Shown: positions 7,388 to 28,665 of the stretch, one piece after another | Position numbering within the stretch: position 1 is the first letter of the stretch | Layout: each line of letters opens with the position of its first letter | Virus record (IMG/VR): IMGVR_UViG_2740892282_000008 | Origin: a virus | Lineage: Duplodnaviria > Heunggongvirae > Uroviricota > Caudoviricetes | DNA length: 28,665 nt | Reading direction: 5' to 3' (one strand) | Position numbers and translations under genes: made by a program | The notes under the pieces: generated by a model | What the model saw: the letters and a program-made list of their open reading frames with translations, nothing else | Told to the model about the DNA's origin: nothing | The model's database searches: none

Positions 7388-7602
7388 TATTCACCTCTCG
7401 CAGCCTTGCGCTTATCTTCTTTAATCTTGAAATAAAGGTTTGTCAGGTACGTCAGCAGGCCAAATACCAGACTACCCAGCACACCGATTGCAGCCCACTG
7501 TGACGGAGTTACTCTATCGAGCAACTGTAAAAACCAGTAGCCAGCACTGCCTGCGGAGGTGCCGTAGGCAATGCCTGTTGAAATTTTGTCCATGGATTTC
7601 AT
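7387..7602 (-). CDS. S: Class II holin / pinholin (S21-like) with dual-start motif
   Basis: 71 aa starting [26 protein letters not shown]; two transmembrane segments; dual start Met1/Met4 (holin/antiholin); strong GGAGGTGA RBS; stop overlaps the R start. Confidence 0.85.
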
Positions 7603-8828: not shown

Positions 8829-9762
8829 TTTTCCTCACATATGTCATATAGTAAAGGATTATATATACCGTTGTTTTGGACGCTCAAACAGCGAATCAGA
8901 TCAAATAAAACGCACATTTGTTAACATTTACACAAAGTCTGCGTGGGATATTCTGAAAGAATATCCATAATGTGGAGAGAATCTATTGAAGTGCATGGTG
9001 CCGGGTGCCTCCCGGTGAACAAAATGTTCGTGATACCTGTCGGCGACAGAAAAGGTTAATGGTATCACCCCACCGCACAGGGGGATTCACCATGCAGGAG
9101 TTTTCTTAGCAAACTCACTGCGCGCCCGGCAACTCCCAACCACATAAAATGCGGAGTTTGTGGTATTTATGCATATAACTCGCAGGAATTATCTTAAAAA
9201 ACTGATGTCGATCCGGATTAAAAAGAAGCAGGTCATCATCAGATGACTGGAAAAAAGGAAAACAAAAAATACTCATCATACAGTTTTGATTGCAGGGATG
9301 AGCCTGCTATGCACAATATGCAGAATATAAGCAAGATAAAAATATGCAGGCATATTATTTCGGATTTTGTTATTAACACAACCTTTTTAATAATCATTTG
9401 GCATACAATAAACCAGCCCAAAAAGAACCGCCTAAACAGGCGGTTGGTCAATACAAAGGATGCTTCGTCTTTATTATAGTAATCTGAGGCGTCGGGTGTC
9501 TTGTATCAGACAACATATTGTCCCGCTAAACAGCGAATTACAAACCACCCTGCAATGATCTCTCATCTCATTTTATATGAGTTGACGACATCAGGATAAC
9601 GCATCATCAGCCCCTGCCAAGAAATATCAAAACTCCCGCCAGCAATGTGTTATCACAATATTGTAAAAAAAACACAGCACCGAAACTATAACTGGTCTCT
9701 GTTATAATTTGGAGCAGAAAGACCAGTTGCCCAACTAGCAGCATTCTCCCCTGCTTTCCTGA

Positions 9763-11769: not shown

Positions 11770-11925
11770 TTACTCCTCAGGTTCGTAAGCTGTGAAGACA
11801 GCGACCTCCGTCTGACCGGTTCGGATTCGCACCTCGCAGAGGTCTTTCCTCGTTACCAGTGCCGTCACTATGACGGTTAAACAGATGACAATCAGTGCGA
11901 CTAACATCGCCTTTTGCTGCTTCAT
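11770..11925 (-). CDS. hok: Hok-family type I toxin (51 aa); in-frame mok-like extension to 11982
   Basis: MKQQKAMLVALIVICLTVIVTALVTRKDLCEVRIRTGQTEVAVFTAYEPEE is near-identical to my recollection of HokD; AAGGAG RBS; upstream in-frame ATG at 11982 gives a 70-aa mok-like ORF; 9-bp hairpin ggcgaggga/tccctcgcc just 3' of the stop. Confidence 0.85.
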   Translation of the reverse strand: MKQQKAMLVALIVICLTVIVTALVTRKDLCEVRIRTGQTEVAVFTAYEPEE

Positions 11926-12136
11926 AGCCTGCTTCTCCTTGCCTTCCGGCGCGTAAGAGGCTAACCTACATGTGCAAAGCATGAAATTGGCCTCAGATTA
12001 ATGTTAAGCGTCTTGCCGGACGCGTAATGTTATCTGGGGCTTTTCTCTATCTGCCTTTGGTGTTCATGCCTGAGGCAGATAGCCTCAAGCACCCGCAGCA
12101 ATTCTACTTAACTCCCGTCACCTCGCCAATATAAAA

Positions 12137-12645: not shown

Positions 12646-13845
12646 ATGCCATTTGTTATTTATGTGTTTACTATCAGTGCCTTTGCGCTCGGACTCGCGG
12701 AATTTGTCCCCATTGGGCTGACAGACGTTATGGCTCAGGGGTTGTGTGTGGGTGTGGAGCAGACCGGGGCAGCGGTTACAACCTATGCACTGGGGGCAAC
12801 GTTCGCGGCACCCGTACTGTCTGCGCTGACAGCAAGCTGGAGCCGGAAAAATGTAATGCTTACAACTGCCGTTGTGTTTACTGCCGGTAGTCTGGCGGCC
12901 GCGTTTGCAGCCACATTACCTCAGCTCCTGTTAGCGCGGTTCATTGCTGGTCTGGGACACGGCCTGTTTCTGGCTGCGGCATCCAGTACCGCAGCTCGTC
13001 TTGCTGGACCGGGTAAAGCAGGCAGAGCGGTGGCTGTGGTATTTGGTGGCTTTACTCTGGCGATGGCAATCGGCGTACCGCTGAGTACATGGTTGGGGGG
13101 GGGGGTCTCATGGCGTCCAGTTCTCGGCGCTATTGCCGCTTTTGGCGCGTTCGGATTCCTTGGACTGTTGTTCGGTATGAAAGATCCCGTACGCAGCGTG
13201 CCCGGTGAACATAGTGACTCAGCAATGCAGAATATCGGCATGCTGTTTAACCGTAAGTTGCTGGCCGGCGCGCTGGTTACGGTGCTGGCGTATGCAGGCT
13301 CGTTTACGGATTACACCTTTATCGCACCTATTCTGACGCAGGTGACAGGGGTTACCGGAGCAACGGTGAGTCTGTTTATGCTGGTTTACGGTATTACAGC
13401 TGCGGTAGGTAATATTCTTGGTGGGAAACTTACCGACAGCATGGGGGTTAATCGTGCCAATATACTCATCATTAGCGGCATTGTTGTTGTCGTGCTTGGT
13501 ATGTGGCTGCTGTCATCCTCACCGGTGAGCATGGGCATTCTGGTTGCGCTGCTGGGTATGGTGACATTTGCCGCAGTGCCGGCACTGCAGGCCCGTCTGA
13601 TTGGTGTCGCTGAGCAACATGCTCCTCATGCGCATGGTGTTGCTGCCGGCCTGAATATTGCGGGCTTCAACTCAGGTATAGCGCTGGGATCAGTACTGGG
13701 CAGCATTACTATAAGCCACGCCGGTATCGTGTATACCGGTATCAGCGGTGCGATTGTTTCTCTGCTCGGCCTGCTGTTGCTGCTTGCACAAATCCGTCGC
13801 AGCCACAGTCGTAAATTTCAACAGGTTAAAATCGTAGGCCAGTAA
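12646..13845 (+). CDS. MFS transporter (399 aa)
   Basis: About 12 predicted transmembrane helices, Gly/Ala-rich major-facilitator-like sequence; AGGAG RBS; GC-rich relative to phage DNA; contains an 11-G tract. Confidence 0.85.
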   Translation: MPFVIYVFTISAFALGLAEFVPIGLTDVMAQGLCVGVEQTGAAVTTYALGATFAAPVLSALTASWSRKNVMLTTAVVFTAGSLAAAFAATLPQLLLARFIAGLGHGLFLAAASSTAARLAGPGKAGRAVAVVFGGFTLAMAIGVPLSTWLGGGVSWRPVLGAIAAFGAFGFLGLLFGMKDPVRSVPGEHSDSAMQNIGMLFNRKLLAGALVTVLAYAGSFTDYTFIAPILTQVTGVTGATVSLFMLVYGITAAVGNILGGKLTDSMGVNRANILIISGIVVVVLGMWLLSSSPVSMGILVALLGMVTFAAVPALQARLIGVAEQHAPHAHGVAAGLNIAGFNSGIALGSVLGSITISHAGIVYTGISGAIVSLLGLLLLLAQIRRSHSRKFQQVKIVGQ

Positions 13846-13856
13846 AGGGAGGTTAT

Positions 13857-14549
13857 ATGCTTACCCGTGAAAATATGCTTAATGGCACATTTGTCAGGGT
13901 GCATGAAGCGCTGCTCCCGGCGAATATGCTCTGGGACGCTGAAAAAATACGCGCATCAATGAACTCTACTCTGGAGGAGCGCCCGACGGGTGCTCCTGTC
14001 TGGATATTTGCCTACGGGTCATTGATGTGGAATCCCGTGCTGGCGATTGAAGAAATGCAACGGGCCCGTCTGAAAGGATGGCAGCGCAGTTTCTGCATTC
14101 GTTTGATATCCGGACGAGCGACTCCTGATGTCCCCGGCAGGATGTTATCGCTCGACGAAGGTGGAATTACCGAAGGTATTGCGTTCAGACTGCCGGAATC
14201 GACTCTTATTAATGAGCTGGAAATTGTCTGGACGCGCGAGATGATAACCGGTCTTTACCGTCCGGTCTGGGCAGACGTTTCGCTAGGAAACGGTGAGGAA
14301 ATTCAGGCGCTGGCTTTCGTATCAGACAGACTGCATCCGCATTATGAACAGGACAATCTTACAGCGACCGTAGCGTTGAGCATCGCATCTGCCCGTGGAG
14401 ACATTGGCACGAATGCAGATTATGTATGGAAACTGCAGGCCACTCTGGGTGCGTTGGGAATACGGGATGATTACGTGAGTGAACTGGCCCTTGCTCTGCA
14501 TGAGGCTCCCTGTAACGATAAACTTCATCAGCGAGGCGCTTCACTATGA
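13857..14549 (+). CDS. ChaC-family gamma-glutamylcyclotransferase-like protein (230 aa)
   Basis: VWIFAYGSLMWNP and GRMLSLDEGG motifs resemble E. coli ChaC; GGGAGG RBS. Confidence 0.75.
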   Translation: MLTRENMLNGTFVRVHEALLPANMLWDAEKIRASMNSTLEERPTGAPVWIFAYGSLMWNPVLAIEEMQRARLKGWQRSFCIRLISGRATPDVPGRMLSLDEGGITEGIAFRLPESTLINELEIVWTREMITGLYRPVWADVSLGNGEEIQALAFVSDRLHPHYEQDNLTATVALSIASARGDIGTNADYVWKLQATLGALGIRDDYVSELALALHEAPCNDKLHQRGASL

Positions 14550-15427
14550 GCCATCTGAGCCATCTGCGAACGTTTCTTGAGGCCTATCGCTCTGGCTCCT
14601 TTTCAAAGGCGGCAGAACTACTGGGCATCACTCAGCCCGCGGCGTCACAGCATATCCAGTCTCTTGAGACTCTGGTTGGTAAGCGTCTGTTTATCAGGCA
14701 GGCCAGAGGCGTGACGGCAACCGAAGCTGCGGATGAGCTTGCCCGCTCAGTTTCACCCTTCATTGATGGTCTGGAAGAAAAGCTGTCCTCTTTCCGGTCA
14801 GGCTCTGTACGCGGGGGAACAATTAATCTGGCAGGACCGCCAGATTTTATTCATTCCCGGCTTGGGACAGTAATGGCTCCACTAATGAAGGAGGGGTATC
14901 GCCTACGCTTTCATACCGGCAATAAGCAACGTATTTATTCCCTTTTGCATGACGGGAGCGCCGATCTCGCTGTTACCGCATCTATGCCTGATGACCGTCT
15001 GTACGGCTATGCACATCTACTGACTGAACGCATGCTCCTTGTTCATGCTCCCGCCATGTCAGAGATCATCGGATCAGAACCTGGTGCTGAAACGCTTGCC
15101 TCATTACCGCTGATTGCTTATGACGAAGAGTTGCCACTGATTAGAGCGCTCTGGGCCTCCATGTTTCAGAGAGCCCCTGAGATGCAGGCTACATTCACCA
15201 TTCCGGATTTACGTATTATCCGCGACTTGGTCTGTGACGGCCACGGGTGGACAGTGCTGCCGGATTATCACTGTGACAATGACCTGAAAAGTGGTCGCCT
15301 GATTTCAGTGACACCTGCAGACCTCGCTCCGACTAATCATCTTTATCTGGTCTGGAACAAAAGGACGGCTAATAACAGCCGAACCGCCTATGTTCGGGAT
15401 TACATTCTTAAAACGTTTCCGCGTTGA
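14546..15427 (+). CDS. LysR-type transcriptional regulator (293 aa)
   Basis: N-terminal LysR HTH (LRTFLEAYRSGSFSKAAELLGITQPAASQHIQSLE) and C-terminal substrate-binding-like domain; ATGA overlap with the ChaC-like gene. Confidence 0.85.
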   Translation: MSHLSHLRTFLEAYRSGSFSKAAELLGITQPAASQHIQSLETLVGKRLFIRQARGVTATEAADELARSVSPFIDGLEEKLSSFRSGSVRGGTINLAGPPDFIHSRLGTVMAPLMKEGYRLRFHTGNKQRIYSLLHDGSADLAVTASMPDDRLYGYAHLLTERMLLVHAPAMSEIIGSEPGAETLASLPLIAYDEELPLIRALWASMFQRAPEMQATFTIPDLRIIRDLVCDGHGWTVLPDYHCDNDLKSGRLISVTPADLAPTNHLYLVWNKRTANNSRTAYVRDYILKTFPR

Positions 15428-15471
15428 TGTTTGAAACGGATGATTGGCGATGCGTATCATAAGTTACGTAT

Positions 15472-15495
15472 GTCCGCTTCTGGCACAAAGCAGAC
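15472..15495. repeat. Dyad element copy A: GTCCGCT-tctggcacaa-AGCAGAC
   Basis: 7-bp arms (one mismatch) with 10-bp spacer, between convergent LysR and membrane-protein genes; 20 of 24 positions identical to copy B. Confidence 0.6.
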
Positions 15496-15557
15496 GCCCA
15501 CTCTCACGCGAATGCTTTGCCCTTGACTTGCCAACAACCGTATCGCTTGCTCCGCAA

Positions 15558-16835
15558 CTATGGTTTTTTATTAGAATCTTCGCCACTAAATAAATTATAA
15601 TAAATTGATTTTATTAGATATCTGTCAGAATCTATATGGTCAGCACGAGTAGCATGCTCTAATGTTTCAAATGCTAGGGTTTGTGCGGCTTCAGCAAAAA
15701 TTCCAGGCCAACCCTTACTCAGCATCGACAGTCCTTTAAGTACCCTTATCTGAATTTCCCTCATACTGGCACCATCGCGCGCAACAGGTGAGAAAAAGTC
15801 TTCAAGTAGATCGTTATTCTGAAGTGGTGCAACATGTACAGAAGGATATTTCACTTCTATTTCATCAGATTTATTCTGCGCGTAAGCGGAAAGTATACGT
15901 ACACCTCTGCCAATGACATCAATGGCGGTTCCAGGATCGTTCACTGCGGGGGAAAGGGCTCGGCAGGCTATTTCGGCCATGACGCTAAGACAAAATCGGG
16001 GGTCCTGAGCAAATGAACGTACATCCGAGACAATAATCGTCTCAAGTAAATCGGTGCTGATTGATGACTCCTGGCCCTGACTCAGGTACAAAACTGGCGT
16101 GGACGGATGTATGAAACTGCCCGGCTGCGCCACGAGGTATACATGACGGGGATCATTGGTCAGCAGCTTGCTGAGTTTCACCATATCAACATATTCAACA
16201 TAGCCAATCTTTTTCGGATAAACTGCAACCGTTCCTTTCGGCTGTTCATTGTTCTCAAGCCATGGATATCCGCCGAGACAGGGATTTCTTGCTCTCGCAA
16301 TAAATGTTTCGATGGCCGCCTGTTCTACTTTTGCCGTTGTCTCACCAACCCTCCCCAGAGAGGTCAAATGCTGTATCCAGCGAAGCAATGTGATGAGGAT
16401 TAAGGCAATGACAACCAGTGTTACAATGAATAAAATGACTCTCCCCCTTTCTCCATAAGCTCCCATATTGAGGGCAATAATCCCTACCAGACTGAAGAGA
16501 AAAGAACCGATGAAGGTGGCCAGTACATTTTGTGTGGTGACGTCTTCAACAACTAAACGAGTAGCTCTGGGAGTCACATTAGTAGTGGCTGAACCGTAGG
16601 CTGTGACCATGATGCTCAGCGAAAATGTGGTCACTGCCAGCATACTCGATGCCAGTATGTTCAGAATGTTATCGACTGCTTCCGCACCAACCTTCACGGA
16701 AACCGACTCAGGTATCATTGATTTAAAAAGAATTGATAAAAGGGCCGTTATTATTGCGACAATTGCGAATAACGTTGCCCTGAACCATAGTTTTTTAAAT
16801 GTCTGCTTCAGCATCCATTTCCAGCGTGAAATCAT
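15558..16835 (-). CDS. Membrane protein of unknown function (about 425 aa; resembles DUF2254-type predicted membrane proteins)
   Basis: Several N-terminal transmembrane helices and a large soluble C-terminal domain; start chosen at the second ATG (16835), which has a GAGGGA RBS; the maximal ORF extends to 16850. Family assignment is from memory and tentative. Confidence 0.55.
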   Translation of the reverse strand: MISRWKWMLKQTFKKLWFRATLFAIVAIITALLSILFKSMIPESVSVKVGAEAVDNILNILASSMLAVTTFSLSIMVTAYGSATTNVTPRATRLVVEDVTTQNVLATFIGSFLFSLVGIIALNMGAYGERGRVILFIVTLVVIALILITLLRWIQHLTSLGRVGETTAKVEQAAIETFIARARNPCLGGYPWLENNEQPKGTVAVYPKKIGYVEYVDMVKLSKLLTNDPRHVYLVAQPGSFIHPSTPVLYLSQGQESSISTDLLETIIVSDVRSFAQDPRFCLSVMAEIACRALSPAVNDPGTAIDVIGRGVRILSAYAQNKSDEIEVKYPSVHVAPLQNNDLLEDFFSPVARDGASMREIQIRVLKGLSMLSKGWPGIFAEAAQTLAFETLEHATRADHIDSDRYLIKSIYYNLFSGEDSNKKP

Positions 16836-16870
16836 TCTGCATTCCCTCATATTGCAGCCGGGATAAATAA

Positions 16871-16891
16871 ATGCCGCCTCTGTGGCGGCAT
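16871..16891 (-). terminator. Hairpin between the BCCT transporter and the membrane-protein gene; possible intrinsic terminator or attenuator
   Basis: 8-bp stem atgccgcc/ggcggcat with loop tctgt; on the minus strand it is followed by ttatttatcc. Confidence 0.4.
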
Positions 16892-16898
16892 GTTGCTG

Positions 16899-18902
16899 TT
16901 AACGAACCAGATGCAGGAAGTGCAGGTGTTTTTCGTACTGGTCCAGTATGTCATTAATCAGCTGTTCCTGATTCCAGCCCATTACATCATAATTTTGGCC
17001 GCCCTCTTTGAGATAGACTTCAGCGCGATAATATCGATGTTGTTCACTCTGCTGCTCATCATTATCCAGCGCAGCGAGCGCGAAGGTCGGTGAGTTATAC
17101 CCGCGAAGCCTCACTTCATATATATAATTCAGCTCGTTGCCCAAATCGACTTCAAGGCGAATACGATCCTCGGCGGCGTCACTGATGTGGCTTATCGTTC
17201 CCTGCTTGTTAAGTTCCTCCTGAACCAGCGTCATGGCGGGTTGGATAATGTCGTCCATAAAACGTTTCACAAGAGAGCGCTTCGGCAAATACGCGATATT
17301 GCGTAACCTTCTCTGCCAGGGAATTGGGTTACGTGCAGCCGTAGGAGCAATAGTCGCCATGCTAAGGCTTTCACGCTTGGTCAAATCCCGACGCAGGGCT
17401 TTTAACAGTCCGTATATGGATATTAATAAGATAACTGAGAAGGGCAATGCACTCGCTATCGTTACGGTTTGCAACGCACTCAGCCCCCCTGCGATCAGCA
17501 GGGCAATAGCAACAACGCCCATGAGCGATGCCCAGAAAATTCGCTGCCAGACGGGCGTGTTTGCCACCCCACCTGATGCCAGAGTATCCACAACCATTGC
17601 CCCCGAATCAGCAGACGTTACAAAGAAGACGATGACCATCGCCATTGCAATGAATGACAGCACGGAAGAGAACGGGAAATGCTCCAGGAAATTAAACAGG
17701 GCAAGCGCAACATCCTGCTGAACGGTATTGGCGAGGTCAGTGGCGCCCTGGTTCATGATGAGATAGATGGCGCTGTTTCCAAACACCGTCATCCACATGA
17801 GCGTAAAGCCGGCGGGAACAAACAACACGCCAGTCACGAACTCACGAATTGTCCTGCCGCGGGAAACGCGTGCAATGAACATACCTACAAACGGCGACCA
17901 TGAAAGCCACCATCCCCAGTATAATAATGTCCAGCCCCCCAGCCAGTTGCTCGACTTGGGTTCATACGCGTAAAGGTTGAACGTTTTACTCACCAGTTCC
18001 GACAGATAACCACCCGTATTTTCCACAAATGACTTCAGCAGAAGCACAGTGGGACCCAGGCACAAGACCAGCGCCAGGAGCAACACCGCCAGGCCCAGAT
18101 TAAGCTCAGACAGGATGCGTATTCCCTTGTCCAGGCCGGACACCACCGAAATCGTCGCTAACCCCGTGATGACCACGATCAAAATGACCTGTACCGTTTC
18201 ATTGATGGGCACGCCGAAAAGATGGTTCAAACCGGCATTCACCTGCAATACACCGTAACCCAGCGATGTTGCAACGCCAAAGACAGTGCCTATCACGGCG
18301 AAGATATCAACCGCGTGGCCTATAGGCCCGTAAATGCGATCGCCGATAATGGGATAGAGCGCAGAACGCAGCGTTAAAGGCAGACCGTGACGGTAACTGA
18401 AAAAGGCCAGAATCAGCGCCACGATGGCATAAATTGCCCATGCGTGCAGACCCCAGTGGAAGAACGTCAGGCGCATGGCTTCCTTCGCTGCCGCAACGGT
18501 CTCTGGAGTGCCGACAGGTGGCGAAAGATAATGCATCACAGGTTCGGCAACGCCAAAGAACATCAGGCCGATCCCCATCCCTGCCGAAAAAAGCATCGCG
18601 AACCAGGAGTGGTAGCTGAAATCAGGCTGCGCATGGTCTGGGCCCAGCTTTATATCACCGTAACGTGAGAGTCCAAGGAACGTGACGCTCAGTAAAATCA
18701 GGGCCACAGCAAGTATGTAGAACCAGCTGGCATTCGTGAAGATTTGTTGCTGAAGTAGTTTAAAATTTTTGTCGGCGACATCCGGGAATACGGCGGCAAA
18801 GGCGACAAGAAGGAAAATTAGCAAAGCAGATGTAAAGAATACCGCTTTGTTAATCTGGCTTGTAGACTTCTTTGGGGTTGTATCATTTTCACTCATAATC
18901 AT
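16899..18902 (-). CDS. BCCT-family transporter, BetT-like (667 aa)
   Basis: Collinear similarity to my recollection of E. coli BetT, including LSELN, WTLLYWGWWLSWSPFVGMFIARVSRGRTIREF and the cytoplasmic C-terminal extension ending DILDQYEKHLHFLHL. Confidence 0.9.
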   Translation of the reverse strand: MIMSENDTTPKKSTSQINKAVFFTSALLIFLLVAFAAVFPDVADKNFKLLQQQIFTNASWFYILAVALILLSVTFLGLSRYGDIKLGPDHAQPDFSYHSWFAMLFSAGMGIGLMFFGVAEPVMHYLSPPVGTPETVAAAKEAMRLTFFHWGLHAWAIYAIVALILAFFSYRHGLPLTLRSALYPIIGDRIYGPIGHAVDIFAVIGTVFGVATSLGYGVLQVNAGLNHLFGVPINETVQVILIVVITGLATISVVSGLDKGIRILSELNLGLAVLLLALVLCLGPTVLLLKSFVENTGGYLSELVSKTFNLYAYEPKSSNWLGGWTLLYWGWWLSWSPFVGMFIARVSRGRTIREFVTGVLFVPAGFTLMWMTVFGNSAIYLIMNQGATDLANTVQQDVALALFNFLEHFPFSSVLSFIAMAMVIVFFVTSADSGAMVVDTLASGGVANTPVWQRIFWASLMGVVAIALLIAGGLSALQTVTIASALPFSVILLISIYGLLKALRRDLTKRESLSMATIAPTAARNPIPWQRRLRNIAYLPKRSLVKRFMDDIIQPAMTLVQEELNKQGTISHISDAAEDRIRLEVDLGNELNYIYEVRLRGYNSPTFALAALDNDEQQSEQHRYYRAEVYLKEGGQNYDVMGWNQEQLINDILDQYEKHLHFLHLVR

Positions 18903-20841: not shown

Positions 20842-21267
20842 TCAATGCACAGCCACAATATTTCCTGCAGGGCCACCACGATTCATCTGGTTGAAACCAG
20901 CGATCGCCACTGCGACAAAATCATCAGCGTCTCTCACCAGTCGTTCCCGCGTCTCCACTAGTTCCCGAAAATAGGCTGAGCTATGGCTGCGCATTCGGGC
21001 CACCAGCAGAGGTGGCATTGCTTTTTCGATAGCTGGTAACAACGCCTGAATTTTTTCAACTGCATCAGGGGTGTCTTTCTCTACCCAGCGGAAAATTTTC
21101 TGGGTATTGCGAGCCAGGGCTTCCGGATGGCTGTCGTCATACAGTTCTGGGAACGTCATACCCAGTTCAAAATAAGCCCTGGTTATTTCAGCTGCCGGAA
21201 CTTTTTCACCGTCCGGATGCGCCCAGGCATTCATCGCCATGCGGATGTGTTCATGCTTGATTTTCAT
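20842..21267 (-). CDS. YdaT-like early protein (141 aa)
   Basis: ATG with AGGAG RBS; follows the cro-like gene with a 17-nt overlap, as ydaS-ydaT do in Rac; name assigned by size and position. Confidence 0.55.
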   Translation of the reverse strand: MKIKHEHIRMAMNAWAHPDGEKVPAAEITRAYFELGMTFPELYDDSHPEALARNTQKIFRWVEKDTPDAVEKIQALLPAIEKAMPPLLVARMRSHSSAYFRELVETRERLVRDADDFVAVAIAGFNQMNRGGPAGNIVAVH

Positions 21268-21532
21268 GAATCAAGCTCCTAGAAAGTGGTTGTGTTAACA
21301 TTTTGGTATCTTCCAGCTCGGGCCAAATATTCATCCAATCAAAAGGCCTTAGTTGCTGACGTGTAACTTCACCATTACTGGCTCGCTCAATAAGGACACA
21401 TAACGATGCCCCTAACACTTGACCTTTACTCAATGCCTTTCTTAGATAACCGATGCTGGTACCACACTCGCATGCAAACATACGCTGTTCATCTGACGAA
21501 AGAGAATTGAGAAATATTCTTAATTCTTCCAT
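21251..21532 (-). CDS. Cro-like HTH regulator (YdaS-like, 93 aa)
   Basis: Divergent from racR across the operator region; HTH-like segment (GTSIGYLRKALSKGQ) and IERASNGEVTRQQLRPFDW motif typical of Cro/YdaS-like proteins; strong AAGGAG RBS. Confidence 0.7.
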   Translation of the reverse strand: MEELRIFLNSLSSDEQRMFACECGTSIGYLRKALSKGQVLGASLCVLIERASNGEVTRQQLRPFDWMNIWPELEDTKMLTQPLSRSLIHENQA

Positions 21533-21561
21533 AGCTACTCCTTAGTAAACACAGCAAAGAA

Positions 21562-21637
21562 TACCCATAGGTAAACAAAAGTCAATACCCACAGGTTGTT
21601 TACCTTGCAGTAATCGCATCTATTATTTACCTATGGA
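21562..21637. promoter_or_regulatory. Immunity operator/promoter region (OR-like) with three related dyad sites
   Basis: tacccataggta (21562-21573), tacccacaggtt (21586-21597) and tacctatgga (21628-21637, overlapping the racR ATG), in the 100-bp gap between divergent racR and cro-like genes. Confidence 0.6.
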
Positions 21638-22052
21638 CAAATATGAATTTAGACGACAGCAACTCATCAAAATTCGTGATGAGAAATGCGATGGTAAAGC
21701 GGTTAACGTGGCCAGAAAGATCGGGCGCGAGCCTTCTTATGTATCAAGAATGTTGTACCCAGAGGGGAAAAAGGGAAAAAAACGGATCGCTGATGATATG
21801 GTGGAGATTATCGAAGAGTCCTTTGGGTTACCCCGGGGATGGATGGATGGTATCGTTTCATCATCAACGAACACAGCCTCCAGTTATGAAACAAGGGTTC
21901 TAACGCCACGACAACGTATTTTTTTAGATCTCTTAGACGAACTGCCAGAAAGTGAAGCGGATAACTTATTAAAAACTCTTGAAGAGAAAAAACAGTATTA
22001 CAATATGATCTACGAAGAAATCCGTAAAAAGAAAGCACAAAACGCATCATAG
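21633..22052 (+). CDS. racR: Prophage repressor (RacR-like)
   Basis: 139-aa ORF with N-terminal HTH (NVARKIGREPSYVSRML), divergent from the cro-like gene and flanked on both sides by operator-like palindromes. The symbol is assigned by position and my recollection of Rac. Confidence 0.65.
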   Translation: MDKYEFRRQQLIKIRDEKCDGKAVNVARKIGREPSYVSRMLYPEGKKGKKRIADDMVEIIEESFGLPRGWMDGIVSSSTNTASSYETRVLTPRQRIFLDLLDELPESEADNLLKTLEEKKQYYNMIYEEIRKKKAQNAS

Positions 22053-22094
22053 CTCACCAAACAACTAGTCACCAGTTAAGACACCGCAAAAAGT

Positions 22095-22132
22095 TACCCA
22101 TGGGTATTTACTTTTTAAATACCTATGGGTAT
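22095..22132. promoter_or_regulatory. Second operator cluster (OL-like) downstream of racR
   Basis: Perfect 12-bp palindrome tacccatgggta (22095-22106) and near-copy tacctatgggta (22121-22132), same family as the sites at 21562-21637. Confidence 0.55.
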
Positions 22133-22306
22133 CCTTCTTTTCATACCAACCCACCCCGCCCCACAGAATGCAGGGCAATACTTCGAGTTACCAGGCAGTG
22201 GTCAGGGGTTAAGTAGCCAGCCCGAGGCGTAAGAACATGACGGCGGGATTCAAATTTTGCAGTGCAGCAGTTAGTTCCGCCACCCGGCGTTAAGGGGAGA
22301 GATAAG

Positions 22307-22441
22307 ATGGTGCATTACGAAGTAGTTCAGTATTTGATGGATTGTTGCGGTATCACTTACAACCAGGCTGTGCAGGCTTTACGCAGCAACGACTGGGATC
22401 TCTGGCAGGCAGAAGTCGCTATACGTAGCAACAAGATGTGA
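22307..22441 (+). CDS. ydaG: Small Rac early-left protein YdaG (44 aa)
   Basis: ATG with AAGGGGAG RBS; MVHYEVVQYLMDCCGITYNQAVQALRSNDWDLWQAEVAIRSNKM; below the ORF-track size cutoff. Confidence 0.6.
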   Translation: MVHYEVVQYLMDCCGITYNQAVQALRSNDWDLWQAEVAIRSNKM

Positions 22442-24375: not shown

Positions 24376-26346
24376 ATGAGCACAAAACCACTCTTCCTGT
24401 TACGGAAAGCGAAAAAATCATCCGGTGAACCTGACGTCGTCCTGTGGGCAAGCAACGATTTTGAATCGACCTGTGCCACTCTGGACTACCTGATCGTTAA
24501 GTCAGGTAAAAAACTGAGCAGCTATTTTAAAGCTGTTGCCACGAATTTTCCTGTCGTTAATGACCTGCCCGCTGAAGGTGAGATCGATTTTACCTGGAGT
24601 GAACGCTATCAACTCAGCAAAGACTCCATGACATGGGAACTAAAACCGGGAGCAGCACCAGACAACGCTCACTATCAAGGCAATACCAACGTCAACGGCG
24701 AAGACATGACTGAGATTGAGGAGAATATGCTACTCCCAATTTCTGGCCAGGAACTGCCCATTCGTTGGCTTGCTCAACACGGCAGCGAAAAACCGGTAAC
24801 GCACGTTTCACGCGACGGACTCCAGGCATTACACATTGCTCGGGCTGAAGAACTACCGGCTGTTACTGCCCTGGCTGTTTCCCACAAAACCAGCCTGCTC
24901 GACCCGCTGGAAATTCGCGAACTCCACAAACTGGTTCGTGACACTGACAAAGTTTTCCCTAATCCTGGTAATTCAAACCTGGGACTGATAACTGCTTTTT
25001 TCGAAGCATACCTGAACGCTGACTACACCGATCGAGGACTGCTGACAAAAGAGTGGATGAAGGGTAATCGTGTTTCACACATCACTCGCACGGCTTCCGG
25101 TGCTAATGCTGGCGGCGGAAACCTCACCGATCGCGGCGAAGGTTTCGTACACGATCTGACGTCACTGGCGCGCGACGTAGCCACTGGCGTACTGGCCCGT
25201 TCAATGGATCTGGACATCTATAACCTTCATCCGGCACACGCTAAACGCATTGAGGAAATTATCGCTGAAAATAAACCGCCCTTTTCTGTTTTCCGCGACA
25301 AATTCATCACCATGCCTGGCGGGCTGGATTATTCCCGCGCCATCGTGGTTGCGTCCGTAAAAGAAGCACCAATTGGGATCGAGGTCATCCCCGCGCACGT
25401 CACTGAATATCTGAACAAAGTACTGACTGAAACCGATCATGCCAACCCTGATCCGGAAATCGTGGATATTGCCTGCGGTCGCTCCTCTGCCCCGATGCCG
25501 CAGCGAGTAACAGAAGAAGGAAAACAGGATGATGAAGAAAAACCGCAACCATCTGGAACAACGGCAGTTGAACAGGGAGAGGCTGAAACAATGGAACCGG
25601 ACGCAACTGAACATCATCAGGACACGCAGCCGCTGGATGCTCAGTCACAGGTAAATTCTGTTGATGCGAAATATCAGGAACTGCGGGCAGAACTCCATGA
25701 AGCCCGGAAAAACATTCCATCAAAAAATCCTGTCGATGCCGATAAATTGCTTGCTGCATCACGTGGTGAATTTGTTGACGGAATTAGCGACCCGAACGAT
25801 CCGAAATGGGTAAAGGGGATCCAGACTCGCGATTGTGTGTACCAGAACCAGCCAGAAACGGAAAAAACCAGCCCAGATATGAATCAACCTGAGCCAGTAG
25901 TGCAACAGGAACCGGAAATAGCCTGCAATGCCTGCGGCCAGACTGGCGGGGATAACTGCCCTGACTGTGGTGCGGTGATGGGCGACGCAACATACCAGGA
26001 AACATTCGCTGAAGAGAGTCAGGTTGAAGCTAAGGAAAATGATCCGGAGGAAATGGAAGGCGCTGAACATCCGCACAATGAGAATGCTGGCAGCGATCCG
26101 CATCGCGATTGCAGTGATGAAACTGGCGAAGTCGCAGATCCCGTAATCGTAGAAGACATAGAGCCAGGTATTTATTACGGAATTTCGAATGAGAATTACC
26201 ACGCGGGTCCCGGTATCAGTAAGTCTCAGCTCGATGACATTGCTGATACTCCGGCACTATATTTGTGGCGTAAAAATGCCCCCGTGGACACCACAAAGAC
26301 AAAAACGCTCGATTTAGCTTCGAATTTGGCCTTGATGAAAAGTTAA
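24376..26346 (+). pseudogene. recE: recE, C-terminally truncated (N-terminal ~640 codons retained; exonuclease domain deleted)
   Basis: Sequence from [29 protein letters not shown] to ...[17 protein letters not shown] matches my recollection of Rac RecE; after LDL the frame runs out-of-frame into recT sequence and stops after 11 codons. Confidence 0.85.
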
Positions 26347-26681
26347 TACACCGCCCGGGAGAAAACGAAGATGCCCCGGTTACCCACGTCTATGCTGTCG
26401 CAAGACTGAAAGACGGAGGTACTCAGTTTGAAGTTATGACGCGCAAACAGATTGAGCTGGTGCGCAGCCTGAGTAAAGCTGGTAATAACGGGCCGTGGGT
26501 AACTCACTGGGAAGAAATGGCAAAGAAAACGGCTATTCGTCGCCTGTTCAAATATTTGCCCGTATCAATTGAGATCCAGCGTGCAGTATCAATGGATGAA
26601 AAGGAACCACTGACAATCGATCCTGCAGATTCCTCTGTATTAACCGGGGAATACAGTGTAATCGATAATTCAGAGGAATAA
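26313..26681 (+). pseudogene. recT: recT 3' remnant (about the last 120 codons, no native start)
   Basis: Reading frame encodes [72 protein letters not shown]...VIDNSEE, matching my recollection of the RecT C-terminus; joined directly to the truncated recE. Confidence 0.8.
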
Positions 26682-26737
26682 TTCAGCCTGGCGGTGTAAT
26701 GCACCGCCAACTTGAAATATTTTTTATGAGAAAAATT

Positions 26738-26932
26738 ATGAGATATGACAATGTTAAACCATGTCCATTTTGTGGTTGTCCATCAGTAACGGTGAAAGCC
26801 ATTTCAGGATATTACCGAGCGAAGTGTAACGGATGTGAATCCCGAACCGGTTATGGTGGAAGTGAAAAAGAAGCACTCGAAAGATGGAATAAACGAACCA
26901 CTGGAAATAATAATGGAGGTGTTCATGTATAA
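26738..26932 (+). CDS. ralR: Restriction alleviation protein / type I toxin RalR (Lar, 64 aa)
   Basis: MRYDNVKPCPFCGCPSVTVKAISGYYRAKCNGCESRTGYGGSEKEALERWNKRTTGNNNGGVHV matches my recollection of Rac RalR. Confidence 0.8.
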   Translation: MRYDNVKPCPFCGCPSVTVKAISGYYRAKCNGCESRTGYGGSEKEALERWNKRTTGNNNGGVHV

Positions 26933-27134
26933 AATTACCGCCACTATTGAAAAGGAAGGTGGCACTCCTACTAACTGGACAAGATATTCAAAATCTAAAC
27001 TAACGAAATCAGAATGCGAAAAAATGCTCTCAGGTAAAAAAGAAGCAGGCGTTTCCAGAGAGCAGAAAGTAAAACTGATAAATTTTAATTGCGAGAAACT
27101 TCAGTCCTCGAGAATTGCATTGTATTCAAATTAA
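26925..27134 (+). CDS. ydaC: YdaC (69 aa)
   Basis: ATG with GGAGGTG RBS, overlapping the ralR stop by 8 nt; MYKITATIEKEGGTPTNWTRYSKSKLTKSECEKMLSGKK... Confidence 0.75.
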   Translation: MYKITATIEKEGGTPTNWTRYSKSKLTKSECEKMLSGKKEAGVSREQKVKLINFNCEKLQSSRIALYSN

Positions 27135-27212
27135 AACTTCATAGCTGATTATTAATAATCAACATCGGGCGTCAATTTCAGTCTAACATTGGCGCCTGCC
27201 AGAGGTGATGCG

Positions 27213-27428
27213 ATGGCACAAGTAATCTTTAATGAAGAGTGGATGGTTGAATACGGCCTGATGCTTCGCACTGGTCTGGGGGCCAGACAAATTGAAGCAT
27301 ACCGCCAGAACTGTTGGGTGGAGGGCTTCCACTTCAAACGAGTATCTCCTTTAGGTAAGCCAGACAGCAAACGAGGGATTATCTGGTACAACTATCCAAA
27401 GATAAATCAGTTTATCAAAGACTCATGA
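27213..27428 (+). CDS. xisR: Excisionase-like protein (YdaQ/XisR-like, 71 aa)
   Basis: ATG with GAGGTGA RBS, immediately upstream of the integrase (2-nt gap); small basic protein in the canonical xis position. Confidence 0.65.
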
Positions 27429-27429
27429 T

Positions 27430-28665
27430 ATGTCTAAATTACCAACAGGTGTCGAGATTAGAGGTAGATACATTCGCATCTGGTTCATGTTTCGAGGAAA
27501 ACGATGTCGGGAAACATTAAAAGGCTGGGAGATTACAAACAGTAATATTAAAAAGGCCGGAAATTTAAGAGCGCTGATAGTTCATGAAATAAACTCCGGT
27601 GAATTTGAGTATTTAAGACGTTTTCCCCAGTCCAGCACTGGGGCAAAAATGGTGACAACGAGAGTCATAAAAACGTTCGGAGAGCTTTGTGATATCTGGA
27701 CAAAAATTAAAGAGACAGAGTTAACAACAAACACAATGAAGAAAACGAAATCACAATTAAAAACACTCAGAATAATAATTTGTGAAAGTACCCCGATATC
27801 ACATATTCGTTATAGCGATATCTTAAACTACCGGAATGAACTGCTGCATGGAGAAACGCTTTACCTGGATAATCCAAGATCCAACAAAAAAGGAAGAACC
27901 GTGCGCACAGTTGATAACTATATCGCCCTGCTCTGTTCGCTGTTGCGTTTTGCGTATCAGTCGGGATTTATATCAACCAAACCATTTGAAGGAGTAAAAA
28001 AATTACAGCGAAACAGAATAAAGCCTGATCCGTTATCTAAAACAGAATTCAATGCATTAATGGAAAGTGAAAAAGGACAGAGCCAGAACTTGTGGAAATT
28101 TGCCGTTTACTCAGGACTTCGTCACGGGGAACTGGCAGCTCTGGCGTGGGAGGATGTGGATCTCGAAAAGGGAATAGTGAATGTCAGAAGAAACCTGACG
28201 ATACTTGATATGTTCGGTCCCCCAAAAACAAATGCCGGGATCCGAACAGTAACACTACTGCAGCCTGCTCTTGAAGCACTGAAGGAGCAATACAAACTGA
28301 CCGGACATCATCGCAAAAGCGAAATCACCTTTTATCATCGGGAGTACGGCAGAACCGAAAAGCAAAAACTGCATTTTGTTTTCATGCCCAGGGTGTGTAA
28401 CGGAAAACAAAAACCTTATTACTCGGTAAGCAGTTTGGGGGCAAGGTGGAATGCAGCAGTAAAACGTGCTGGTATTCGCCGCCGTAATCCGTACCATACG
28501 CGGCATACTTTTGCCTGCTGGCTGTTGACGGCAGGAGCGAACCCGGCATTTATAGCCAGCCAAATGGGGCATGAAACTGCGCAGATGGTGTATGAAATTT
28601 ACGGTATGTGGATTGATGACATGAACGACGAACAGATAGCCATGTTGAATGCGCGGTTATCGTAG
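27430..28665 (+). CDS. intR: Tyrosine site-specific integrase (411 aa)
   Basis: C-terminal catalytic region with the conserved R...HxxR...Y pattern (YHTRHTFACWLLTAGANPAFIASQMGHE...MVYEIYG); length and position match Rac IntR; stop is the last codon of the window. Confidence 0.9.
   Translation: MSKLPTGVEIRGRYIRIWFMFRGKRCRETLKGWEITNSNIKKAGNLRALIVHEINSGEFEYLRRFPQSSTGAKMVTTRVIKTFGELCDIWTKIKETELTTNTMKKTKSQLKTLRIIICESTPISHIRYSDILNYRNELLHGETLYLDNPRSNKKGRTVRTVDNYIALLCSLLRFAYQSGFISTKPFEGVKKLQRNRIKPDPLSKTEFNALMESEKGQSQNLWKFAVYSGLRHGELAALAWEDVDLEKGIVNVRRNLTILDMFGPPKTNAGIRTVTLLQPALEALKEQYKLTGHHRKSEITFYHREYGRTEKQKLHFVFMPRVCNGKQKPYYSVSSLGARWNAAVKRAGIRRRNPYHTRHTFACWLLTAGANPAFIASQMGHETAQMVYEIYGMWIDDMNDEQIAMLNARLS

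Follow-up and report, generated by a model that had tools for sequence, protein, structure and literature searches.

In phage lambda, the two sites OR1 and OR2 of the right operator (OR) lie 24 bp apart, OR2 is centred near -42 of the promoter for repressor maintenance (PRM) and activates it, and the cI messenger RNA (mRNA) is leaderless. In the Rac prophage carried by Escherichia coli K-12, the RacR operators O1-O3 have the form TAGGC-n3-GCCTA (PMC9638921, PMC11879457), the operators of PaaR2 and YdaS in prophage CP-933P have been published (PMC8630535), and the transcripts of both K-12 racR and paaR2 are also leaderless (PMC9638921, PMC8630535). The present analysis deals with a 28,665-bp stretch of a Rac-type prophage (IMG/VR record IMGVR_UViG_2740892282_000008, hereafter the window), in which palindromic sites at 21562-22131, on both sides of a CI-like repressor gene, were examined. 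Judged from sequence, position and conservation, these TACC-YRYR-GGTA palindromes (Y, pyrimidine; R, purine) are very likely the operators of a lambdoid immunity region, through which the repressor would silence both flanking early promoters. The arrangement of right and left operators (OR and OL) is a textbook one, that of an ordinary lambdoid system.

An earlier reading of the same DNA, made from the letters only (the sequence-only reading), had proposed such a layout, with one repressor serving both early promoters and its own gene. This proposal is supported because motif and position co-occur with the DNA-binding domain of the repressor in about 40 loci, because the sites overlap sigma-70-like promoters in the geometry of lambda, and because K-12 Rac has its own RacR operators at positions equivalent to those of the window sites (PMC9638921). 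No paper or database annotation was found for the operators of repressors of the type carried by phage mEp043 or of the Rac variant described here, including in searches by operator sequence and consensus, and the motif does not seem to have been described so far.

Operator sites in the window

The two genes between and beside which the sites are arranged are as follows.

21633..22052, + strand: CI-like repressor gene (named racR in the sequence-only reading), 139 aa, between the two site clusters
21251..21532, - strand: Cro-like gene, YdaS-related, 93 aa, divergent from the repressor gene

The sites are listed below in the order of their coordinates.

21562-21573: S1, OR1-like operator, TACCCATAGGTA, an exact consensus match inside the predicted spacer of the right early promoter (PR), overlapping the PR -10
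21586-21597: S2, OR2-like operator, TACCCACAGGTT, between the PR -35 and the PRM -35, centre about -41.5 from the repressor ATG or transcription start
21601-21612: OR3-like operator, TACCTTGCAGTA, one mismatch to the relaxed core, overlapping the PRM -35 (TTTACC) and spacer
21628-21639: S3, start-codon site, TACCTATGGACA, over the ATG at 21633, two mismatches, doubtful
22095-22106: S4, OL2-like operator, TACCCATGGGTA, a perfect palindrome ending directly upstream of the -35 of the left early promoter (PL)
22120-22131: S5, OL1-like operator, TACCTATGGGTA, in the PL spacer, its last two bases starting the PL -10

The consensus TACCYAYRGGTA is matched exactly at three places (six strand-hits), all of them inside 570 bp and none elsewhere in the 28,665 bp, against a chance level of 0.03 +/- 0.22 in dinucleotide-preserving shuffles of the window. 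The relaxed core TACCNNNNGGTA likewise has three exact matches in the window (0.19 expected), and S2 and 21601-21612 come in when one mismatch is allowed. With two mismatches the count rises to 14 against 6.5 +/- 3.1 in the shuffles, an excess so modest that S3, the non-coding part of which is a left half-site only, cannot rest on its own sequence. The sites are real and not the product of chance. Counted from the repressor ATG, S1 lies at -71, S2 at -47, the site at 21601-21612 at -32, and S4 and S5 at +462 and +487, respectively; with the ATG as +1, the centres of S1, S2 and the third site (O3) are at -65.5, -41.5 and -26.5. The 100-bp gap between the repressor gene and the Cro-like gene contains three sites of the conserved type.

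All five sequences named in the sequence-only reading are present in two clusters, and its perfect 12-bp palindrome downstream of the repressor gene was recovered as S4. S1, S2, S4 and S5 were borne out by the comparative footprint given below, whereas S3 is doubtful, and the site at 21601-21612 had been missed. Autoregulation is likely to act through 21601-21612, which covers the -35 and spacer of PRM, and not through S3 at the start codon.

Promoters and repressor transcript

Promoters were searched for by a consensus scan of 21400-22400 with a threshold of nine matching positions; the hits are consensus matches only. Exactly two promoter-like sites were returned, PR and PRM, both of which overlap operators, and PL was read from the sequence.

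21558..21585, - strand: predicted PR, -35 TTGACT (21585-21580), 16-nt spacer, -10 TATTCT (21563-21558), facing the Cro-like gene
21599..21626, + strand: predicted PRM, -35 TTTACC (21599-21604), 16-nt spacer, -10 TATTAT (21621-21626)
22107..22135, + strand: predicted PL, -35 TTTACT (22107-22112), 17-nt spacer, -10 TATCCT (22130-22135)

The predicted PL, which would drive ydaG/ydaF, kilR and recE, mirrors PR in its relation to the operators, with the centres of OL1 and OR1 near -16.5 and those of OL2 and OR2 near -41.5 (PL) or -40.5 (PR). It occupies the position of the putative PL annotated in mEp043 and is conserved across the family, where the alignment reads GGTA-TTGACa ... TACCnnnnGG-TAnnnT. 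The left side of this pattern reads GGTA-TTTACT in the window, so that S4 abuts the -35 and S5 lies in the spacer and -10. In K-12 Rac, a pair of RacR-type sites similarly brackets a TTGACA-17-TATAGT promoter just downstream of racR.

The repressor mRNA is very probably leaderless, a prediction made because only 6 nt separate the ATG from the PRM -10, the repressor ATG is preceded at 5-7 nt by the end of a TAnnnT hexamer in 29 of 43 loci, and no Shine-Dalgarno motif precedes that ATG in any of the 43.

Comparative footprint

Conservation was assessed in one-genome-per-species assemblies encoding relatives of the N-terminal 80 residues of the repressor (40-82% identity), which yielded 35 loci ranging from Edwardsiella, Klebsiella, Pantoea, Yersinia and Aeromonas to Paraburkholderia, Herbaspirillum, Nitrosomonas and Stenotrophomonas. 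Site density was calculated for 38 loci (these 35, phages mEp043 and CharmingMan, and the window), site positions were compiled in a set of 46 (those 38, seven short-form relatives and the window), and 45 related loci, which extend from enterobacteria to Burkholderiales and Xanthomonadales, served to assess conservation together with the domain. A scan of viral contigs returned only 100%-identical copies, which are uninformative for footprinting.

Counted from the repressor ATG, TACCnnnnGGTA stands at about -73 and again at about -33, with TACCnnnnGGTT at about -48, in nearly all of the 35 loci. In the 38 loci, exact TACCNNNNGGTA has a density of 19.2 per kb between -100 and -20 and of 0.31 per kb elsewhere, and of the 48 exact matches outside this zone, 40 belong to pairs with a spacing of 23-27 bp that lie downstream of the repressor gene, such pairs being present in 25 of the 38 loci. 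The 46 loci contain 31 listed downstream OL pairs in a conserved PL-like arrangement, and in the 45 related loci the pair has a spacing of 25-26 bp and stands at a PL-like promoter. At the first site (O1, about -73), TACC and GGTA are the same throughout (42 of 42 sites), and variation is confined to the flanks and the central 4 bp. The second (O2, about -48) has the form TACC-YRYR-GGTT in 31 loci and is flanked by a conserved TCAA, and O3 (about -33) was found in 39 loci with a centre other than YRYR. In the 46-locus matrices the YRYR centre was present in 42/42 sites at O1, 27/31 at O2 and 6/39 at O3. The consensus of the sequence-only reading therefore fits the presumably strong sites well, and O3 differs from it systematically and is presumably a weaker site. 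The predicted promoters have equivalents in the family: the PR -35 corresponds, on the other strand, to the conserved TCAA beside O2, and the PRM -35 has its counterpart in the TTTACC conserved at O3.

S1, S2, S4 and S5 match this conserved set, and 21601-21612 takes the position of the third operator at -33, which in a close relative (L123) has the exact O3 form TACCTTGCGGTA. The seven short-form relatives, at 53-91% identity and with a C-terminus of the type found in the Qin repressor DicA, possess the same sites with other central bases. In mEp043, the gap between cI and cro contains TTACCTGTAGGTAA, ATACCCATAGGTTA and TTACCGGCAGGTAA, and the annotated putative PL contains TTACCTATAGGTAT and TTACCTGTAGGTAT; CharmingMan has the same layout of 3 + 2 sites. 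Phage Tritos shares the C-terminus of the repressor with the window and has another N-terminal domain and other operators, built around GTAC. The motif thus follows the DNA-binding domain, since Tritos, which is without this domain, is also without the motif. A homologue of the Cro-like gene lies beside the repressor gene in 38 of the 45 loci, so that domain, operators and cro form a co-inherited unit, whereas a YdaT-type gene and the DicA-type C-terminus are exchangeable, as they were found in only 5 and 9 loci, respectively.

The enterobacterial relatives that have diverged furthest, L114 (Rahnella) and L120 (Ewingella), at 40-47% identity, have sites of the TACT-N4-AGTA type at the operator positions, which suggests that half-site specificity has drifted with the DNA-binding domain. 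No operator sites were seen in an Advenella locus (L116, 42% identity).

The repressor

The repressor is a chimeric CI-like protein without a self-cleavage domain, a reading adopted because its N-terminus is like that of mEp043 cI, its C-terminus is like those of Tritos CI and DicA, and its predicted fold is of the XRE type. A helix-turn-helix domain of the mEp043-cI type (residues 1 to about 75) is followed by a linker and a DicA-type two-helix C-terminus (about 88-139). By tblastn, residues 1-86 are 65% identical to mEp043 cI and residues 1-82 are 65% identical to the CharmingMan counterpart; over the first 80 residues the aligned identities are 69% and 66%, respectively. The homology shared with the mEp043-type family takes in MDKYE...REPSYVSRML...LPRGWMD, and of the 317 relatives of the DNA-binding domain in the database, most carry the S24 domain PF00717. 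No S24 self-cleavage domain was found in the repressor itself, the C-terminus of which aligns with Tritos CI (139 aa; 72% identity) and with DicA residues 84-129 (33% identity, E = 1e-7) and not with the S24 part of mEp043 cI. The match to the DicA family model NF007257 in NCBIfam was confined to residues 86-136 and scored 23.9 bits against a curated cutoff of 101, so that the protein falls outside this family.

In database searches the repressor matched no Pfam domain, and its sequence returned only noise from the PDB (best E = 0.076, ADAR Z-alpha), but PHROGs placed it in phrog_5736, "transcriptional regulator", with E = 4e-70. The identical protein of E. coli CP53 is annotated as "hypothetical protein". 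Homology to RacR was rejected (BLASTP E = 2.3, no meaningful alignment), and the name racR of the sequence-only reading applies to the gene as a positional analogue only.

In an AlphaFold model of the repressor (mean predicted local distance difference test score, pLDDT, of 84), residues 3-72 form an N-terminal domain with four helices plus a short helical turn, residues 77-87 are a disordered linker, and residues 92-103 and 106-138 make up two C-terminal helices. The best structural match of the N-terminal domain in the PDB was to that of the repressor of Salmonella phage SPC32H (5d50; root-mean-square deviation 1.6 A over 72 columns, 26% identity), followed by restriction-modification C-proteins and HigA antitoxins, all of them XRE-type helix-turn-helix folds. 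On this model the repressor is predicted to have a helix-turn-helix DNA-binding domain, in which the helix at residues 34-40 (SYVSRML) may be the reader of the TACC half-site. Since the protein has no S24 domain, induction, if any, would not run via RecA-stimulated self-cleavage; an antirepressor may be required, as it is for SPC32H Rep, a protein of similar structure.

In two E. coli sequences (L123, CP041550, and L124, CP164693) the repressor has been called from a second ATG 10 nt downstream, giving a product of 136 aa the N-terminus of which is not read in the frame of the conserved MDKYE start. The shift of frame implies a 1-nt indel early in the gene, and the repressor may be decaying there.

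Proposed regulation

Most likely, the 139-aa repressor would bind each 12-14-bp palindrome as a dimer via its XRE-type helix-turn-helix domain. Bound at OR1 and OR2, it would block PR and so keep the replication genes and the Cro- and YdaT-like genes off, while OR2, near -41.5 of the leaderless PRM, is placed where it could stimulate repressor synthesis. At high repressor level OR3 would be filled and PRM shut, giving negative autoregulation, and occupancy of OL1 and OL2 would leave PL silent, with ydaG/ydaF, kilR and recE off. The Cro-like protein probably uses the same sites. We infer operator binding by the repressor and the Cro-like protein, the order of occupancy and the activation of PRM from the sequence, and the binding is supported by the co-occurrence of motif and domain.

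Several points weigh against this picture. The PL hexamers are weak: with the -10 TATCCT, the promoter reaches 8 of 12 matches by our own count, below the scanner threshold of 9, and was not reported by the scan. The OR3 site at 21601-21612 bears a G-to-A mismatch and lies 15 bp from OR2, compared with 23 bp in lambda, so that the occupancy rules of lambda may not transfer. The C-terminus is not the S24 cooperativity domain of the lambda type, so that pairwise cooperativity and looping between OR and OL are hypothetical. Since the motif is accompanied by the Cro-like gene in most loci, there is a small chance that Cro is the main binder. Lastly, literature searches found no binding or expression experiment on the repressor or any close relative.

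Alternative readings

The reading that holds up best beside the operator function is that the OL pair doubles as an RNA terminator, which would end the PRM transcript before the kil/recE operon; we regard it as a possible, if doubtful, second role. A terminator scan returned the following feature.

22095..22141, + strand: OL2/OL1 RNA hairpin of 16 bp followed by UCCUUCUUUU, a possible intrinsic terminator of the repressor transcript

The hairpin folds at -24.1 kcal/mol (centroid -22.9, z = -4.3) and is the sole terminator-like feature between the repressor stop (22052) and PL, a stretch in which mEp043 and CharmingMan have separate canonical terminators before OL. The centres of the OL sites also remain complementary in short-form relatives (e.g. 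CACA/TGTG in L121). On the other hand, any two copies of a palindrome pair automatically, the U-run after the hairpin is broken by a C, and the OL pair lies far from the repressor gene in two loci (L125 and L127). Selection on the hairpin across the whole family was rejected, as centre complementarity came to 2.55 paired positions against 2.43 in permuted pairs (p = 0.16), and the terminator was kept as a low-confidence secondary role for the lineage of the window. A wider proposal, put forward tentatively, is that one DNA-binding domain with its operator set is coupled to an SOS-cleavable S24 domain in active lambdoid phages such as mEp043 and to a DicA-type helical C-terminus in the widespread Rac variant; if both repressors bind the same operators, the cryptic prophage would confer on its host a standing immunity to mEp043-type phages that is not SOS-inducible, that is, a domesticated defence, and the OL pair may, in addition, terminate the leaderless mRNA of the repressor.

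Less probable is that S3 (21628-21639) is a genuine fourth OR operator, acting in negative autoregulation by covering the PRM start point. Its left half TTTACC is identical to that of OR3, its centre TATG is of the YRYR type, and it spans -5 to +7 of the predicted leaderless start, much as O3 of K-12 RacR overlaps the racR ATG (PMC9638921). The right half GACA, however, has two mismatches and is fixed by the Met-Asp-Lys codons of the conserved coding sequence ATGGAyAAA, and TACC was found at this position in none of about 40 diverged relatives; even the left half is changed in Salmonella (L122, TACTTATGGATA). S3 is kept only in near-identical E. coli copies, and its candidacy as a conserved operator was rejected after this comparison. 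The site at -33 is a conserved alternative for autoregulation.

It is very improbable that the Cro-like (YdaS-type) protein is the main binder and that the 139-aa protein acts at other sequences. The accompaniment of the motif by a Cro-like homologue (see above) would agree with it, as would the footprinting of intergenic operators by YdaS of CP-933P (PMC8630535). Against this, loci of a Klebsiella group keep O1, O3 and the OL pairs, and no homologue of the Cro of the window was found in them by tblastn, which indicates that the motif tracks the repressor rather than Cro; the OL sites, moreover, adjoin the repressor gene. To our knowledge, CI and Cro share operators in every lambdoid system studied, and binding by Cro is for this reason more a complement to binding by the repressor than a rival to it.

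That the sites are chance palindromes or restriction-site-like CCATGG without a regulatory role is practically refuted, for although the two-mismatch count is not far above that of the shuffles, the six exact strand-hits all surround one gene, and over dozens of species the central CATG changes but position and core do not.

Prophage context and neighbouring genes

The preferred reading, in which the palindromes are operators of the CI-like repressor, places the immunity region within a Rac-type prophage beside ttcA. An identical 1.1-kb stretch is present in E. coli CP53, where it is flanked on one side by ydaF, sieB, kilR, ydaE, racC, recE, recT, ralR, xisR and intR and on the other by a YdaT-family gene, a replication gene and a DUF977 gene. 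The immunity module (repressor, OR and OL) was found in 822 of 5426 complete E. coli genomes, and the K-12 racR module in 1086 genomes. Directly behind the PL -10, from about 22140 of the window on, sequence identity with K-12 sets in again. An operator of the RacR type, (T/A)TAGGC-n3-GCCTA(T/A), was found nowhere in or near the immunity region, the lone one-mismatch match in the window (at 7565) being at chance level. The immunity cassette is a heteroimmune replacement, swapped as a block with its operators, one junction being the boundary of cro and ydaT and the other lying just behind the PL -10.

The Cro-like protein is 70% identical to mEp043 Cro, 46% to CharmingMan Cro and 26% to K-12 YdaS in alignments, and its Pfam match to YdaS is below threshold. 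It is followed in the PR operon by a further gene.

20842..21267, - strand: YdaT-like gene (CII analogue) of the PR operon, located downstream of cro, Pfam YdaT_toxin, phrog_163 CII-like

Where the Cro-like gene ends and the YdaT-like gene has its start codon, both are spanned by TTGATTTTCATGAATCAA (21257-21274), an exact copy of the published YdaT box TTGATT-N6-AATCAA (PMC9986795, PMC11879457), for which 0.2 matches with at most one mismatch are expected by chance. If K-12 and CP-933P are taken as a guide, this box may mark a YdaT-activated repressor promoter resembling PRE (the promoter for repressor establishment).

The leader between PL and the first open reading frame (ORF) of the early-left operon (about 22140-22310) is nearly identical in K-12 Rac and phage Tritos despite their differing immunity cassettes and may be an antitermination or processing element. 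No Rfam match was obtained for 22142-22310, and its fold is no better than that of shuffles (z = 0.11). The Rfam scan of the whole window returned nothing in 21500-22320 and gave four matches above the gathering score, namely IS009 (510-708), the small RNA STnc100 (8939-9125), the sok antitoxin RNA (11920-12094, beside hokD) and the RalA antitoxin RNA (26931-27109, beside ralR).

Two other parts of the prophage were compared with CP53. In 24376-27430 the recE-like ORF ends at 26346 and encodes 656 aa, compared with 866 aa in CP53 and K-12, and intR starts at 27430, about 1.1 kb nearer than in CP53; from the shorter recE and the nearer intR, a deletion of the 3' end of recE and most of recT can be deduced for the window copy. 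The large ORFs in mid-prophage, at about 12646-18902, look like non-phage cargo inserted between the replication and late regions; their counterparts in the closely related CP53 copy bear the annotations MFS transporter, gamma-glutamylcyclotransferase, LysR regulator, DUF2254 protein and BCCT transporter.

Implications for annotation

The value of these results lies mostly in annotation, and the understanding of how such switches work is unchanged. The "hypothetical protein" encoded in the 822 E. coli genomes can be named as the repressor of a second Rac immunity type, heteroimmune to that of K-12 racR, and base-precise positions can be given for its operators and three promoters. TACC-N4-GGTA can serve as a predictive signature, across Gamma- and Betaproteobacteria, for a CI-like family the DNA-binding domain of which has no Pfam model. 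The locus is also a clean natural case of module swapping inside a repressor gene, in which domain, operators and cro stay together while the C-terminus and the CII-type gene are exchanged.

Comparison with known systems

The window resembles lambda in its divergent repressor and cro genes with three operators between them, in the second operator cluster at the early-left promoter past the repressor gene, in the distance of 24 bp between S1 and S2, and in a middle operator at about -42 from a leaderless PRM. It differs in that the operator is a 12-14-bp TACC-N4-GGTA palindrome instead of a 17-bp site, that OL has only two sites and starts 43 bp past the repressor stop codon, and that the repressor has no S24 (RecA-cleavable) domain.

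With K-12 Rac the window shares the backbone and insertion region, with intR, recE, kilR, sieB and ydaF on one side and the replication genes on the other, as well as a repressor lacking S24, a leaderless transcript for it and a set of three operators that separates its gene from ydaS. The two repressors, however, have no detectable similarity, the operator sequences differ, and the Cro proteins are only distantly related, at the 26% identity noted above.

Phages mEp043 and CharmingMan have TACC-N4-GGTA sites in the same 3 + 2 layout as the window, but their cI proteins are of about 225 aa with a C-terminal S24 peptidase domain, a separate canonical terminator precedes OL, and lambda-type cII and N are found instead of YdaT. 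The likeness to DicA and Tritos CI lies in the short repressor of 135-139 aa with a helical C-terminal domain and, for Tritos, in the common early-left leader and YdaT-like gene, whereas the N-terminal helix-turn-helix domain and the operators are different.

The PaaR2/YdaS/YdaT region of CP-933P likewise combines a CI analogue without S24, a Cro of the YdaS type and a CII of the YdaT type with OR and OL sets and a leaderless repressor gene. It is set apart from the window by another repressor, by operator repeats based on GTTTAGTAA, by four inverted repeats in OR, and by a toxin-antitoxin pair after PaaR2.

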